The notes under the pieces: model-generated
Told to the model about the DNA's origin: nothing
What the model saw: the letters and a program-made list of their open reading frames with translations, nothing else
Database searches by the model: none
NCBI GenBank assembly: GCA_964229335.1
Contig: CAXRCZ010000003.1
Location: forward strand, 1 to 17,513
Length of the DNA: 17,513 nucleotides
Reading direction: 5' to 3'
Source of the DNA: Minisyncoccia bacterium
GTDB taxonomy: Bacteria > Patescibacteriota > Minisyncoccia > Phycocordibacterales > UBA918
In this document: in pieces, positions 9,965 to 16,477 of the stretch
Layout: each line of letters starts with the position of its first letter
Numbering within the stretch: position 1 is the first letter of the stretch
Translations under genes and position numbers: made by a program

Positions 9965-10939
9965 ATGTTTGTTATCACACACAGAATTTTGTTTTTGTAT
10001 ATTGGAGCGGCCATCATGCTAGGTAGTATTGCTCTTATCAGTCTCCTAGGCGTCAGGGTTGGAATTGACTTTACGGGAGGTTCGTTACTAGAGGTCGCGT
10101 ACGACACAGCTCCTGAAAAACAATTGGTCGAAGCGGCACTCGGTGACTATGATTTAGGCGGTGTGTCGGTGAGAGAGTCAGTGAGCGAAGATGGTAGAGA
10201 TGCTTACTTTATTCAGACCCGCGATTTAAGTGAAGAAGAAAGGATTGCTATTGGAGCAGATGTAACGATGTTGGGAGAAGGAGGAGAGGTCAGTCGTTTC
10301 ACCTCGATTGGGCCAGTGATTGGTCAAGAGTTGGCAGACAAAGCGGTGTGGGCTATCGGAGCAGTAATGCTGATTATTGTGCTATATGTTGCCTTTGCGT
10401 TTGCCGGAATTGGCACCCCGGTTAGCTCATGGGTATATGGTGCCACAACTATCTTAGTGTTAGTACACGATGTATTGGTACCAGCAGCAGTAATGAGCTT
10501 GCTCGGAGTTTTGATTGGTGCCGAGATTGATGTCTTGTTTGTGATGGCTTTGCTAGCTGTGTTGGGATACTCGGTCAATGACACTATTGTAATCTTTGAC
10601 CGCGTACGCGAAAATCTCAAAGCCAATCGAACTGAAGAAAAGGAAACTATTGAAGTCGTCGGGGGAATGGATCGTGAAAAAATTACCTATACGCTAACAG
10701 CTCCATACGAAAAAATAGTCGGTGAAGCGGTGCGAGATAGTATGGCTCGCTCTATCAATACTTCACTAACTACGTTTGTTGCACTCACTGCCCTGTACTT
10801 CTTTGGCGGTTCGACCACCCAAGTATTTGCTCTTATCTTGATGGCGGGAGTAGCGGCCGGTGCGTACTCATCAATCTTCATCGCTAGTCCTCTGGTGGTG
10901 GCGTATGAAGAGTGGAAGCGTAAGAAAGAGGCTAAATAA
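9965..10939 (+). CDS. secF: Protein translocase subunit SecF
   Basis: GIDFTGGS, SIGPVIGQEL, LVHDV, LGYSVNDTIVIFDRVRE, RSINTSLTT, GAYSSIFIASP; starts 3 nt after the secD stop. Confidence 0.97.
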   Translation: MFVITHRILFLYIGAAIMLGSIALISLLGVRVGIDFTGGSLLEVAYDTAPEKQLVEAALGDYDLGGVSVRESVSEDGRDAYFIQTRDLSEEERIAIGADVTMLGEGGEVSRFTSIGPVIGQELADKAVWAIGAVMLIIVLYVAFAFAGIGTPVSSWVYGATTILVLVHDVLVPAAVMSLLGVLIGAEIDVLFVMALLAVLGYSVNDTIVIFDRVRENLKANRTEEKETIEVVGGMDREKITYTLTAPYEKIVGEAVRDSMARSINTSLTTFVALTALYFFGGSTTQVFALILMAGVAAGAYSSIFIASPLVVAYEEWKRKKEAK

Positions 10940-10944
10940 TCACT

Positions 10945-11019
10945 ATGGTGATAGGTATTACCGGAACTGACGGAGCGGGCAAGGGTGAGAAGGTTTGGGA
11001 AACCTTCGCAAGACCTTGA
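10945..11019 (+). other. 24-codon ORF whose first 14 codons duplicate the N-terminus (Walker A) of the downstream kinase
   Basis: ATG GTG ATA GGT ATT ACC GGA ACT GAC GGA GCG GGC AAG GGT... translates MVIGITGTDGAGKGEKVWETFARP*, versus MIIGITGTDGAGKGTVV at 11124. Confidence 0.85.
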
Positions 11020-11086
11020 CAGACGCCACTTTTCTTTAAGTGTGGTGTCGACAAGGTTTACTGCGGCCTGTAAGGCGCCCGTTCCG
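10971..11086. ncRNA. Putative structured RNA or insertion element (four-way junction) of unknown family
   Basis: Closing stem CGGAGCGGGC 10971-10980 / GCCCGTTCCG 11077-11086. Hairpin GAAGGTTT-GGG-AAACCTTC 10989-11007. Long hairpin 11008-11064 (AGACCTTG/CAAGGTTT and GACGCCAC/GTGGTGTC). Small hairpin GCCT-GTA-AGGC 11066-11076. The G-U pairs work on the + strand. Confidence 0.55.
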
Positions 11087-11123
11087 GCATAACTCAATTT
11101 TTGTTACCATAGAATACATATTT

Positions 11124-11681
11124 ATGATAATCGGAATCACAGGTACAGATGGCGCAGGGAAAGGAACGGTAGTCGAATATCTCATCCAGAAAAAAGGCTT
11201 CACTCACTTTTCTGCTCGTGCATTTTTGGTAGAAGAATTACAAAAAGCTGGCAATCAAAACTCTGTGCGCAACGACATGCGACTGATGGGAAACAAGCTG
11301 CGAGCCGAACATGGTGATGAATTCTTAGCCAAGCTGGCTCTAGAAAAAATTAAAGCTACAGGTATAGAAAACGCAGTCATTGAATCTCTCAGAGCCGTCG
11401 CAGAAGCCGAGTATATAAAACAACACGGCGGCATTCTACTTGCTGTAGACGCGGATGTGCACTTACGATTCAAGCGGGTGCAGGCTCGTCGCTCCGAGAG
11501 TGATAAAGTTGACTTTGCTACCTTTGTGGCTCAAGAAGAGTTAGAGAAAAACGACCCAGATCCTAACGGCATGCAAAAAGCCCGAGTGATGGAAATGGCC
11601 GATTATACGGTCACCAATAACGGCAGCGTTGAAGAACTACATACCCAAGTAGAAGAATTTTTAGGGAGTTTACAAGCATAG
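11124..11681 (+). CDS. P-loop nucleotide kinase (AAA family; dephospho-CoA kinase/UPF0200-like)
   Basis: MIIGITGTDGAGKGT Walker A at the N-terminus, VIESLR, RFKRVQAR, MADYTVTNNGSVEEL. ATG 11124 preferred over GTG 11040; TGTTACCAT extended -10-like motif at 11102-11110. Confidence 0.85.
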   Translation: MIIGITGTDGAGKGTVVEYLIQKKGFTHFSARAFLVEELQKAGNQNSVRNDMRLMGNKLRAEHGDEFLAKLALEKIKATGIENAVIESLRAVAEAEYIKQHGGILLAVDADVHLRFKRVQARRSESDKVDFATFVAQEELEKNDPDPNGMQKARVMEMADYTVTNNGSVEELHTQVEEFLGSLQA

Positions 11682-11693
11682 GAAACTTATATT

Positions 11694-11719
11694 GAATCAC
11701 CGCATTAATGCGGTGATTC
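11694..11719. promoter_or_regulatory. Perfect 26-bp palindrome, candidate operator for the AbrB-like gene
   Basis: GAATCACCGCATTAATGCGGTGATTC is its own reverse complement, has no U-tract, and lies just upstream of TGCTACTAT (11724-11732), which is followed by 6 nt and ATG 11739. Confidence 0.65.
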
Positions 11720-11738
11720 CCTATGCTACTATTTTTAT

Positions 11739-11924
11739 ATGCCGAGAAGAAAATTAGAAAATAGAAATATACGTACCCTTAACAAAACATCGGGCGGCAA
11801 AAGTTACGGTATCACTTTACCAATTGAAGCCATCCGCACGTTTCGCTGGCAGCGCAAACAAAAGCTTGAGTTGGTTATCGATGAAAAGCGTAAGCGGATT
11901 ATCATCCAAGATTGGGAAGGGTAG
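11739..11924 (+). CDS. Small AbrB/MazE/SpoVT-like DNA-binding protein
   Basis: 61 aa, basic; RTLNKTSGGKSYGITLPIEAIRTFRWQRKQKLEL...RIII fits the swapped-hairpin pattern (S-x-x-ITLP-x-x-x-x-R). Confidence 0.75.
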   Translation: MPRRKLENRNIRTLNKTSGGKSYGITLPIEAIRTFRWQRKQKLELVIDEKRKRIIIQDWEG

Positions 11925-13831: not shown

Positions 13832-13905
13832 GTTGACAGCCCGGTTCTTTCGTTCTTCGAAAGACTGAATATCTAATACACACAAACAATTGAAAGGAAA
13901 GCGCT

Positions 13906-14586
13906 ATGCGCAATCTTATGATGTGGATCATGCTTTCGTCGCTCATGGCGCTCGGAATCATGCTTCCGACCACTGCTTCGGCTCGTGAGACGGTCGTACC
14001 GTTTATTACGGCCGAGCATTACATGAAAAACATTGCTCTCGACGAATACCGAACGAACCAGCGTGGATACTTCCGTTCTGAAGCGGCTTTCGACCTTCTG
14101 GTCGACTATGTCGCTGATGAAATCGGACAGCCGCTGACCGACGCCCAGTTCATTGCGCTTATGCGCAGTGACCAGGTGCGGGCACGTGATTGTCCGACGA
14201 GTGAAGTCATCAACACCGGCGCTCTGCGAGGAAATCAGTTCTACTGGTTTACTCGCCACTGTCGTCTTGGCGAACAAATCGTCCAGGCGAAGGTGCATGG
14301 CCGATGGATCGACCTGTTTTCCCTCAACTGCCTCAACGCAGTCGAGGACAAGACGCCGGTTCCATCGCCGCTCGTGTTCGTGCCGGCTCCTCCGGAGCCG
14401 CAGCCCAAACAATGTCGCTGGGTGGCAGTCTCGCAGACGGTGCGGCAAAATCTGCCGTATCAGCTGCCGAGCACGGCCATCCATGTGGGTTGCTGCAAAA
14501 GCTGCAGTCATACCCACTTCATCAATGGACAGCTGGTCGACTTCGGAACCTCCGGGTCGATCACCTACGAACAGGTCTGCGACTAA
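13906..14586 (+). CDS. Secreted Cys-rich hypothetical protein
   Basis: SD-like GAAAGGA; signal peptide ending TTASA; 8 Cys including GCCKSCSHTH; Pro-rich linker PVPSPLVFVPAPPEPQP. Confidence 0.8.
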   Translation: MRNLMMWIMLSSLMALGIMLPTTASARETVVPFITAEHYMKNIALDEYRTNQRGYFRSEAAFDLLVDYVADEIGQPLTDAQFIALMRSDQVRARDCPTSEVINTGALRGNQFYWFTRHCRLGEQIVQAKVHGRWIDLFSLNCLNAVEDKTPVPSPLVFVPAPPEPQPKQCRWVAVSQTVRQNLPYQLPSTAIHVGCCKSCSHTHFINGQLVDFGTSGSITYEQVCD

Positions 14587-14606
14587 GCAGATCAAGGAGA
14601 GATGAT

Positions 14607-15269
14607 ATGAAAATCATGAAGTACCCCACGGCCATCTTGACCGCCGTCTCCGTCAGTCTGGCCACCCCGGCCATGGCTGGCGACTTCGACGACGACAAGG
14701 CCGAGCTTCCGCTCGAGCTGAAGGTCGAAGACCTGATGGACGGTCGGAACGCCTACTTTGGCGACAGCCGCGACTACACCGTCATGCGCTTCAATCCGTT
14801 CACCTACCGGGTAACCGTCCGCGACGTCTACCGTCCGGACGGACACTTACAGAACGTCATGCGCATCACCGACTACTGTCTGACCGAAATGGGTCTGATT
14901 GAGGCGGTGCCTGAACGACAATGTGCCAATCCGGTCGGACCCATCATTTCGGTGAACGAGACCAATGGCAACGCGACGGCCGGCAGGCTGCTGATGGGTG
15001 CGCTCGGCGGGAGCCTTCAGGCTTTCACTGGCATCACTGCTCAGAGCCTGTTCGGTGGCTGCAACGGCAGCTGCGAAGGTCGTGGTAGCACCATCACCGT
15101 AACCGCGACCGGCGGCGCTGCCGTGGCAGAAGGTGGTGACGCTGCGTCAGCTGCCTCGGCTGCTCAGCAGCAGAACCAAGAGCAGGCACAAGCCATGACT
15201 CAGTCCCAGGCGCAAGCCGTGGACGCTGCTGGTCCGGGACCTTGTCCCACTGGAGGCGGTTGCGAGTAA
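14607..15269 (+). CDS. Secreted hypothetical protein with a Gly/Ala/Gln-rich C-terminus
   Basis: SD AAGGAGA at 14594-14600, ATG 14607 in frame with ORF 14304..15269; signal peptide MKIMKYPTAILTAVSVSLATPAMA; 6 Cys; tail AASAASAAQQQNQEQAQAMTQSQAQAV...CPTGGGCE. Confidence 0.8.
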   Translation: MKIMKYPTAILTAVSVSLATPAMAGDFDDDKAELPLELKVEDLMDGRNAYFGDSRDYTVMRFNPFTYRVTVRDVYRPDGHLQNVMRITDYCLTEMGLIEAVPERQCANPVGPIISVNETNGNATAGRLLMGALGGSLQAFTGITAQSLFGGCNGSCEGRGSTITVTATGGAAVAEGGDAASAASAAQQQNQEQAQAMTQSQAQAVDAAGPGPCPTGGGCE

Positions 15270-15277
15270 TCGCTCGA

Positions 15278-15335
15278 GCTATCGGGCGCGGATGCGATGG
15301 GGGAATTCTTCCCCAAAGCCACCGCGCCCGATAGC
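15278..15335. repeat. Strong intergenic hairpin without a U-tail
   Basis: Perfect 14-bp stem GCTATCGGGCGCGG / CCGCGCCCGATAGC enclosing an inner GGGGAA-ttc-TTCCCC stem. Confidence 0.75.
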
Positions 15336-15370
15336 CGCGGTATCGAATTCAACCAAATTGGAGATCAATC

Positions 15371-16477
15371 ATGAAAATTATTTCCATTCTGGTCGGTGCC
15401 GTGACATTCCTCATGGTGTCGGCTAGTCCCGCATACGCTTCCGGGTGTGATTTTATCCCCGGACAGCAAATGCAAATCAACCAAGCTGCTGTATCTGAAC
15501 GGCTGGAAAATGCCGGCGCTGACACTGTCGATAAGTTTGTCGGCCAAATAGTCGGTGCCTTGGCGCAACCAGAGAACGCAGATGCACTTCCGTCTGTCAG
15601 TCAGCAATGTCGTTCGTCGCAGTTTCTGCGGCCGGCGATTATCCAGCTGAACAACCTCAGTCCTAACGCATCTTCTCAGACGCTGGTTGGCAAAGTGCTG
15701 GTTCTTCCGGCGCAAATGGCCACTTCGGCCTCGTCACCGCGACCGGCGACTCCCGCTGTTCCTAGCAGGCAGCCGGCTCCGAGTGTCACCGAACGCCAAG
15801 TCAATGAAGCTGCGCAAGCGGCTGAAGAGGCGGCAGAAGCGGTTGATCGGGTGCAAGACGAACTCACCGAGGCGGAAGCCAAGGAAGAAACTCGTTCGCG
15901 CACCCGTAGTCAACTCATTGACCAGCACAAGGCCGCCGTCAGGCAAGGTCAGCGTGACAGGGCAAGTGAGCTGATGGGTCAAATCCTGACAATCAACAGG
16001 GAGCTCGAAAGCTTGCGAAGCGAGATTTCCTCGCTGCGAAAGGATTTAACCGCTTGGAAAGATGAGTCCGACAATAGGTTGAAAGACCTTGAGGACTGGC
16101 GGAAAAAAGCCGAACCGCAGCTCGCCGCTATCATCGGTGAACCGGACGAAAGCGGTCAGCCGGTGGCGAGCCTGCGCGATCTGTTCGATGGTCTGAAGAA
16201 CAAGGCGGATCGTACCTATGTGGACGATCAAATCGCCAAGTTCCAAGCCTGCCAACAGATTCACCCTCTCTGCGTTCTCAATGAGCAGGGTGAGTATGTC
16301 GGAGCCGAATCCGAAGCGGAAGCTACGGAGGAAGGTGATAGCTGGAATCTGGCCACGTTTGTCTGGATTATGCTCGGCATCGGTCTTTTGCTTCTCGTTG
16401 GCTACCTCGTGTATCGGTTTATCCGCAAGGATGAGGCCGAGAATGAGGAATCCAATGAGGGCAACGCAGAATCCTGA
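15371..16477 (+). CDS. Type I membrane protein: signal peptide, possible degenerate LysM-like domain, Pro-rich linker, coiled coil, C-terminal TM anchor
   Basis: SD GGAGA; signal peptide ending SPAYA; AIIQLNNLSP...LVGKVLVLP; PRPATPAVPSRQPAP; heptad-rich region (INRELESLRSEISSLRKDL); TM FVWIMLGIGLLLLVGYLVY followed by RFIRK and an acidic tail. Confidence 0.82.
   Translation: MKIISILVGAVTFLMVSASPAYASGCDFIPGQQMQINQAAVSERLENAGADTVDKFVGQIVGALAQPENADALPSVSQQCRSSQFLRPAIIQLNNLSPNASSQTLVGKVLVLPAQMATSASSPRPATPAVPSRQPAPSVTERQVNEAAQAAEEAAEAVDRVQDELTEAEAKEETRSRTRSQLIDQHKAAVRQGQRDRASELMGQILTINRELESLRSEISSLRKDLTAWKDESDNRLKDLEDWRKKAEPQLAAIIGEPDESGQPVASLRDLFDGLKNKADRTYVDDQIAKFQACQQIHPLCVLNEQGEYVGAESEAEATEEGDSWNLATFVWIMLGIGLLLLVGYLVYRFIRKDEAENEESNEGNAES

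Follow-up and report, generated by a model that had tools for sequence, protein, structure and literature searches.

The window analyzed here, a whole stretch of 17,513 nucleotides of contig CAXRCZ010000003.1 from a Minisyncoccia bacterium, carries the gene secF followed by a P-loop kinase gene whose start is present twice (Table 1). Copy 1 of the start begins 5 nt after the secF stop codon, and copy 2, which opens the intact gene, follows at an offset of 179 nt. This doubled start, the original prediction from the DNA letters, was recovered in full: 13 of 14 residues are the same in the two copies, and the reading frame of copy 1 ends at a stop in codon 25, leaving a 24-codon open frame. The insert between them is structured, as had also been predicted (z = −4.6, with 0 of 200 shuffles equally stable). 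The downstream gene encodes a 185-aa P-loop kinase (Pfam AAA_18/AAA_17) with relatives in 38 of the 61 genomes searched. In two relatives (loci L014 and L029), secF is followed by a tandem pair of kinase genes, both full-length and diverged from each other.

Table 1. Features of the secF-kinase region of the window.
Feature	Position	Strand	Basis or remark
secF, upstream gene of the operon	9965..10939	+	Pfam SecD_SecF_C; lies right next to the kinase gene in relatives with an empty site
Copy 1, the displaced start of the kinase gene: codons 1-13 and two bases of Gly14, ending in GG	10945..10985	+	Ancestral position
Conserved structured core, 90 nt; left end is the T after GG, right end two bases past the TGTAA loop	10986..11075	+	Repeat family in own genome; model R1, 89 bits; ends from simple insertion at L164/L233
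Helix P1, loop TGGGA	10986..11010	+	Covarying pairs; G-T 9 versus A-C 2 on top strand
Helix P2, conserved internal loop and variable long stem	11013..11057	+	Two-sided changes in 13 of 13 pairs
Helix P3, near-invariant TGTAA loop; invariant AC before P3	11062..11078	+	Covariation
Antisense guide; all 7 bases are complementary to the intact-copy junction 11163-11169	11079..11085	+	Covaries with local target
Spacer; 11099-11112 able to pair with copy 1 start; possible promoter	11086..11123	+	Duplex prediction
Copy 2, the replacement start of the kinase gene; closes the 179-nt unit on its right	11124..11164	+	Tandem units at L348 end at the same place
Intact P-loop kinase gene, 185 aa	11124..11681	+	Pfam AAA_18/AAA_17

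The two copies of the start differ at the third base in all 13 codons after ATG (p ~0.004 under the codon usage of the genome itself). The original prediction counted all 13 as recoding. Because a simple insertion at L164 fixes the left end of the core at 10986, codon 14 of copy 1 takes its third base from the element, whose first base this is; the differences are present, but those at genuine third positions number 12. Among intact relatives, none of 91 pairs of kinase starts differ at 12 of 12 third positions. At other loci, paired starts are identical or nearly so (L049, L052, L193, and L348) or carry three silent differences (L112), against twelve in the window, and the notion of recoding as a designed feature gained no support. 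Full recoding is uncommon, yet it is no rule of the element. Across 18 pairs of protein-gene starts, differences number 13, 11, and 61 at codon positions 1, 2, and 3, respectively. This skew indicates that both copies were shaped by coding selection, so that neutral decay of a duplicate does not describe copy 1. The 12-of-12 recoding, a single case, may reflect the survival of units that homologous recombination cannot delete.

A chimera of strains or an assembly error was considered and rejected: the study's assembly of a second sample includes a contig that runs through positions 10787-11144, from copy 1 across the insert into the beginning of copy 2, with zero differences and no joint, and the doubled start is therefore not a chimera. 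A one-off decayed paralogue was likewise rejected, given the repeat family and the recurrence at the same kinase codon described below. Of 29 loci in relatives, 22 lack any insert, and the kinase lies no more than 11 nt after the upstream stop. Copy 1 therefore occupies the ancestral position, and the 179 nt were inserted; their removal would give an operon junction like that of the relatives, as had been anticipated.

Copy 1 and the 3′ flank of the core are predicted to form a duplex of −37.7 kcal/mol (−18.1 in shuffled sequences, with 0 of 500 as low). The bases of a formerly proposed extended −10 motif can pair with the start of copy 1, and a promoter scan of the window did not call this motif. 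A long stretch antisense to the left flank is seen in just 9 of 108 copies of the element, and strong flank pairing is thus not general.

A structured repeat family

A BLAST follow-up of the insert, suggested with the original prediction, and profile searches turned up further copies in the same genome. From 13 copies we built a model (R1), which matches this genome 16 times, although two of the matches are one copy on a mirrored contig. That contig (G000:C7) is a mirror image about its middle, where all hits and tRNAs occur twice at positions that sum to 126717; this assembly artefact inflates the counts and the contamination figure. R1 matches were found in 96 of 100 genomes of the same genus and 86 of 150 of the same order, at 1 to 45 per genome. 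Elsewhere in the phylum, it matched 1 of 149 genomes, so R1 detects mainly one order. Matches to sequence patterns are mostly from Patescibacteria (Kaiser-, Nomura-, and Zambryskibacteria and others); 5 of 8 metagenome matches are attributable to chance. Searches with three patterns gave no match in viral contigs, and none was found in phages and plasmids.

The core of ~90 nt forms three helices (P1, P2, and P3), and the loop of P1 is usually TGGGA. Among 121 distinct sequences, 26 of 26 modelled pairs have two-sided changes, and 94% of alignment cells are paired, compared with 36 to 41% when the structure is slid along an alignment that was itself fitted to that structure. On the top strand, G-T pairs outnumber A-C pairs in a set selected by sequence only (9:2 in P1, 11:1 in P2, and 41:14 in the P2 stem), an excess from which we conclude that the top strand folds. 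A cruder folding test points the opposite way from these wobble counts: in 123 of 203 copies, the P2 region is more stable when the bottom strand is folded. The loops at hairpin tips, in a comparison of DNA with RNA, include 36 GNA triloops and 21 GNRA tetraloops (RNA parameters). No Rfam family, ribozyme, or intron matched the window at E values up to 10. The classical traits of miniature inverted-repeat elements, terminal inverted repeats and a short target-site duplication, were not found, and the element's two ends are unrelated to each other; its duplicates are one-sided, 10 to 55 bases long, and run to a gene end. Unit lengths do not follow a helical periodicity. At two loci (L042 and L043; G000:C1:17686 and C4:32541), the P1 hairpin alone (~25 bases) lies in the D-arm of tRNA-Lys and tRNA-Thr fragments, without P2 or P3.

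Element ends, targets, and the antisense guide

Simple insertions at L164 and L233 define the ends of the core. At L164, the kinase gene is split after the GG of codon 14 and resumes after P3, which places the core of the window at 10986-11075; this genome (G125) has a second, intact kinase gene. At L348, the intact gene is preceded by two full 179-nt units together with the final part of another, which differ by a few bases, and L345 has two units. From these tandem arrays, the unit in the window is 10986-11164, and unequal crossing-over could be an alternative origin of the arrays.

We parsed 203 copies, some of whose rows represent neighbouring copies or chance, into 38 with an upstream duplicate (5′ type), 45 with a downstream duplicate (3′ type), 6 with both, and 114 with neither. 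In the 5′ type, the element follows a duplicate of the start of the downstream gene; in the mirror-image 3′ type, it precedes a duplicate of the end of the upstream gene, so that the 3′ end of the gene is the replaced part. Because each duplicate extends as far as the start or end of the gene it copies, the locus keeps an intact gene. In 3′-type copies, the first two bases past the inner pairs of P3 follow the element's helix, and the next ~20 match the local tRNA. The junction of the 5′ type falls before, and that of the 3′ type after, the same two target bases.

Targets have in common a G, usually GG, before the junction. They include T-loops and D-arms of tRNAs, rplK (Pfam L11), and the kinase start, along with genes that we take to be msrA, GH1, rnhB, and acylphosphatase, most of these target names being our own assignments. 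Targeting of Walker A sequence as such, which had been proposed from the window, is not supported in a family that hits tRNAs, msrA, GH1, rnhB, and rplK too. The kinase start is targeted at 12 loci (the window, L006, L049, L052, L087, L112, L147, L164, L193, L345, L348, and L350), at Gly codons 4, 12, or 14. Of the 94 tRNA-linked copies, 80 are in sense orientation and 10 in antisense only. Antisense insertions (L094) bring a duplicate of the tRNA 3′ end and a terminator-like hairpin of their own.

At L032 (G000:C2:1990-2290), the variable P2 loop of a copy in antisense orientation contains an intact tRNA-Ile, and a sense copy lies in a tRNA-Ile fragment just downstream. At L039 (G000:C12:11534-11670), one strand of P1 supplies the last six codons and the stop of rplK, with the displaced end after P3, and L300 has the same arrangement. 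At G000:C6:42922-43257, ARAGORN predicts a tRNA-Met that is interrupted at position 36 by an intron of 264 bases.

A feature overlooked in the original reading is an antisense guide at 11079-11085. It consists of the seven bases after P3, which are complementary to the junction of the intact gene (GG and five further bases). We scored guides against local targets at 11 of the 12 kinase loci, namely those with an intact downstream copy. In total, 68 of 77 positions match, whereas exchanging guides among loci at random gives 53.1 on average (0 of 20,000 shuffles as high), a test that overstates the significance because the kinase loci are related. Locus L147, whose guide is shifted by three bases, was kept in the test at 3 of 7. 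All seven positions pair at the window, L049, L087, L345, L348, and L350 (about six or seven loci), against four to five different target sequences. Copies that target tRNAs have an antisense stretch of 7 to 12 bases, located after P3 in the 5′ type and before P2 in the 3′ type. In the GH1 and msrA copies, the antisense stretch is weak or missing.

Known systems and candidate enzymes

The 22 tRNA-linked repeats (TLRs) of Escherichia coli K-12 end in the last 18 to 19 bases of the tRNA or rRNA that precedes them, and no function is known for them (PMC8144298). They include the 178-bp tyrT/tyrV repeats and RtT RNA (RF00391), and they resemble our element in being gene-less, structured units of ~180 bases with a copy of a gene end. 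The tyrT repeats also contain the tRNA end in antisense, after which comes a hairpin whose first nine bases are the same as those of P1. This hairpin aligns at 9.4 bits (E = 0.017 in 1.4 kb), and the remainder does not: R1 scores the repeats at 5 to 9 bits, and the P2 region fails to align. Conversely, the RtT model RF00391 gave no match in the genome at E values up to 1 and none in the window. The unit in the window also duplicates the 5′ end of a protein gene and not the 3′ end of an RNA, whereas a TLR-like copy of a tRNA end, typically 21 to 22 bases, is present in the 3′-type members of the family. The element is built like the TLRs but, on these features, would not be classed with TLR/RtT.

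Genomic islands are defined by a restored gene, a displaced fragment, and an integrase in PMC4383910 (Islander). Integrase-encoding islands and prophages of this kind have an intact gene and a displaced fragment at island ends, 5′- and 3′-fragment classes, and T-loop sites, all of which our element shares. Unlike these islands, of >2 kb, it has no integrase and measures 113 to 190 bases. It also differs in that the window lacks a long identical att core, one core serves many targets, and an antisense guide tracks the target.

In IS110/IS1111 elements, a bridge RNA chooses the target by base pairing of a guide, with a circular intermediate and a 2-base core. The guide of our element likewise sits in a structured non-coding part and covaries with its target, and a circle and a 2-base core would be further likenesses. 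The element has one guide, with no second (donor) loop seen, and unlike IS110 it carries replacement gene ends. The DEDD recombinase of IS110, considered as a partner, was rejected, with 0 in the genome itself and 8 in 150 genomes of the order. REP/REPIN sequences with their RAYT enzymes and IS200/IS605 Y1 transposons are short, multi-copy, and folded on one strand, without duplication of gene ends. Our element is similarly short and multi-copy, folds on one strand, and has no enzyme of its own, but it duplicates gene ends, and no cognate Y1 gene is flanked by it or co-occurs with it.

Other candidate enzymes fared no better. The Y1 transposase was not found in the element-rich genomes G032, G020, G006, and G066, and 3 of 33 Y1 or GIY-YIG loci have a copy of the element nearby. 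The GIY-YIG family was dismissed as a partner, with an association in just 1 of 240 loci, and the large serine recombinase shows no association with the element (Fisher's test, P = 0.49). Neither does a family of ~220-aa proteins with an N-terminal HTH that is present in 65 of 150 genomes of the order (Fisher's test, P = 0.14); this family, which we presume to be LAGLIDADG-like (weak HTH hits in Pfam, none over the cut-off), is often located directly before tRNA genes (L353 at G000:C13:50888-51529, L082, L061, L080, L102, and L241). No reverse transcriptase was found in the genome itself, which has a single tyrosine recombinase gene (C1:57514) and two serine recombinases. Among neighbouring proteins, Pfam identified no transposase, integrase, or reverse transcriptase in the 105 scanned of ~200 clusters. 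The genome's single Y1/RAYT-like gene (C10:10593) is flanked by palindromes of its own that are unrelated to the element (L198:1235-1280 and 1940-1960; G000:C10).

Candidate mechanism and competing explanations

The insert in the window is probably a non-autonomous, guide-directed integrative element, judging from its sequence features and those of its relatives. The original suggestion of a minimal element that supplies a replacement 5′ end is borne out by the empty sites in 22 of 29 relatives, by recurrence at the same codon elsewhere, and by the tandem units. We propose that a gene-less 179-base unit would arrive as a small circle, the folded strand of which would find its site through the 7-base antisense guide. 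An enzyme encoded elsewhere would then act in trans to join the unit after the GG of codon 14, presumably by strand exchange at the target G. Because 5′-type junctions fall before and 3′-type junctions after the same two target bases, the cut or exchange may be staggered by 2 bases, and selection would retain the product with an intact gene. Under this mechanism, copy 1 would be the resident start and copy 2 the one brought by the element, and the silent differences would be those between two separately functional orthologous starts. A fixed circle alone does not account for the identical paired starts, for which local copying or conversion is needed; given that such starts occur in unrelated kinase subfamilies (L049, L052, and L193), the replacement would often be copied from, or converted to, the local gene. 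Neither a circle junction nor an empty-site junction was found in four contig sets, and contigs drop rare forms.

We lean toward DNA rather than RNA as the folded molecule because antisense insertions restore a tRNA end, no sole-copy tRNA is interrupted, removal of the core shows no frame preference, and no reverse transcriptase was found. The 10 of 94 tRNA-linked copies found in antisense only also favour an event at the DNA level. An opposing explanation sees in the core a small RNA catalyst, capable of splicing or recombining itself, whose guide sets the 3′ splice site at the second GG and so joins copy 1 to the gene body, with spread through an RNA intermediate. The invariant unpaired AC, the TGTAA loop, and the pentaloops would suit an RNA fold, as would the tolerance of the top strand for G-T pairs and the sense orientation of most tRNA-linked copies. 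Splicing would also account for coding selection on copy 1, and L164 without the core has an open kinase frame. We nevertheless consider a catalytic RNA unlikely, as Rfam gave no matching ribozyme or intron and removal restores a tRNA in 0 of 77 cases. When just the core is taken out, the frame stays open and in phase for 10 of 29 protein cases and 1 of 11 kinases, antisense copies exist, the genome yielded no reverse transcriptase, and an intact gene nearly always stands beside the broken copy.

Equally improbable, in our estimate, is an ordinary REP- or MITE-like core that inserts after a G with low specificity, with insertions close to a gene end surviving only where a local duplication later rescues the gene and the antisense stretch left as a by-product of fold-back during repair. 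It would fit the 114 of 203 copies that have no detectable duplicate, the many copies inside other intergenic repeats, the local copying that identical paired starts suggest, and the long antisense stretches to the left flank in 9 of 108 copies. However, the guide in the window matches its target at variable positions even though the paired starts are fully diverged, and site, guide position, and unit length (179 to 182 nt) recur across species with unrelated spacers. The junctions are, moreover, exact to the base, without the inverted repeats or short target duplication noted above. A gene with a displaced fragment is also the signature of an integrative island (PMC4383910), and the unit could in principle be the shrunken attachment-site scar of an integrase-encoding island or prophage aimed at the kinase start. 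This form of the original prediction found no backing: no large version and no adjacent integrase turned up, and within 1.6 kb there is no long version save for one weak 12-base match. With no match in viral contigs, phages, or plasmids, with one core serving dozens of unrelated targets (unlike integrase-specific sites), and with tandem minimal units in existence, we regard such a scar as highly improbable. We think it just as far-fetched that a short peptide mimicking the kinase start, together with an RNA structure, forms a regulatory leader that controls the kinase. Copy 1 does provide a 24-codon frame, the start of which the spacer is predicted to be able to sequester. Yet the arrangement is missing at the junction in most relatives, and at L052 and L147 copy 1 no longer has a start codon. 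The leader-peptide reading, also put forward originally, is not supported, given the presence of the same core beside non-coding tRNA fragments and gene 3′ ends and in antisense orientation.

Returning to guide-directed integration, we advance a broader proposal more tentatively and at somewhat less than an even chance: that the family is a new class of programmable mobile DNA, in which a folded scaffold of ~90 bases with an antisense address integrates exactly and preserves the gene, is retargeted to dozens of sites by changes of a few bases, and is driven either by an enzyme with a housekeeping role or by its own nucleic acid. The element is real, bears a guide, and is apparently undescribed, as our literature search, which covered the main texts of open papers, returned no description of it. 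A bioRxiv survey (10.64898/2026.10.21.760802) names one Patescibacteriota array cluster of another kind, and PMC9897764 and bioRxiv 2024.07.17.603846 yielded nothing specific to the element. If the guide directs integration, the family would amount to a minimal targeting system that nature has reprogrammed, with up to 45 copies each in genomes of <1 megabase. Unlike IS110, CRISPR-type, or integrase systems, the element has no known protein partner. If true, this mechanism would also offer one for the tRNA-linked repeats of E. coli, which have been without a known function since 1978. The family accounts for many false short genes and tRNA fragments in the annotations of these bacteria.

The remainder of the window includes a perfect GC-rich palindrome 3′ of the kinase (11690-11720) and a gene for a 61-aa AbrB/MazE-like protein with no adjoining toxin gene (11739-11924). 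The region 13873-16477 holds three large genes (13906-14586, 14592-15269, and 15371-16477) with a codon style of higher G+C and no Pfam match over the cut-off, possibly an acquired block. The 5′ part of a 16S rRNA gene occupies the contig end (17146-17513).
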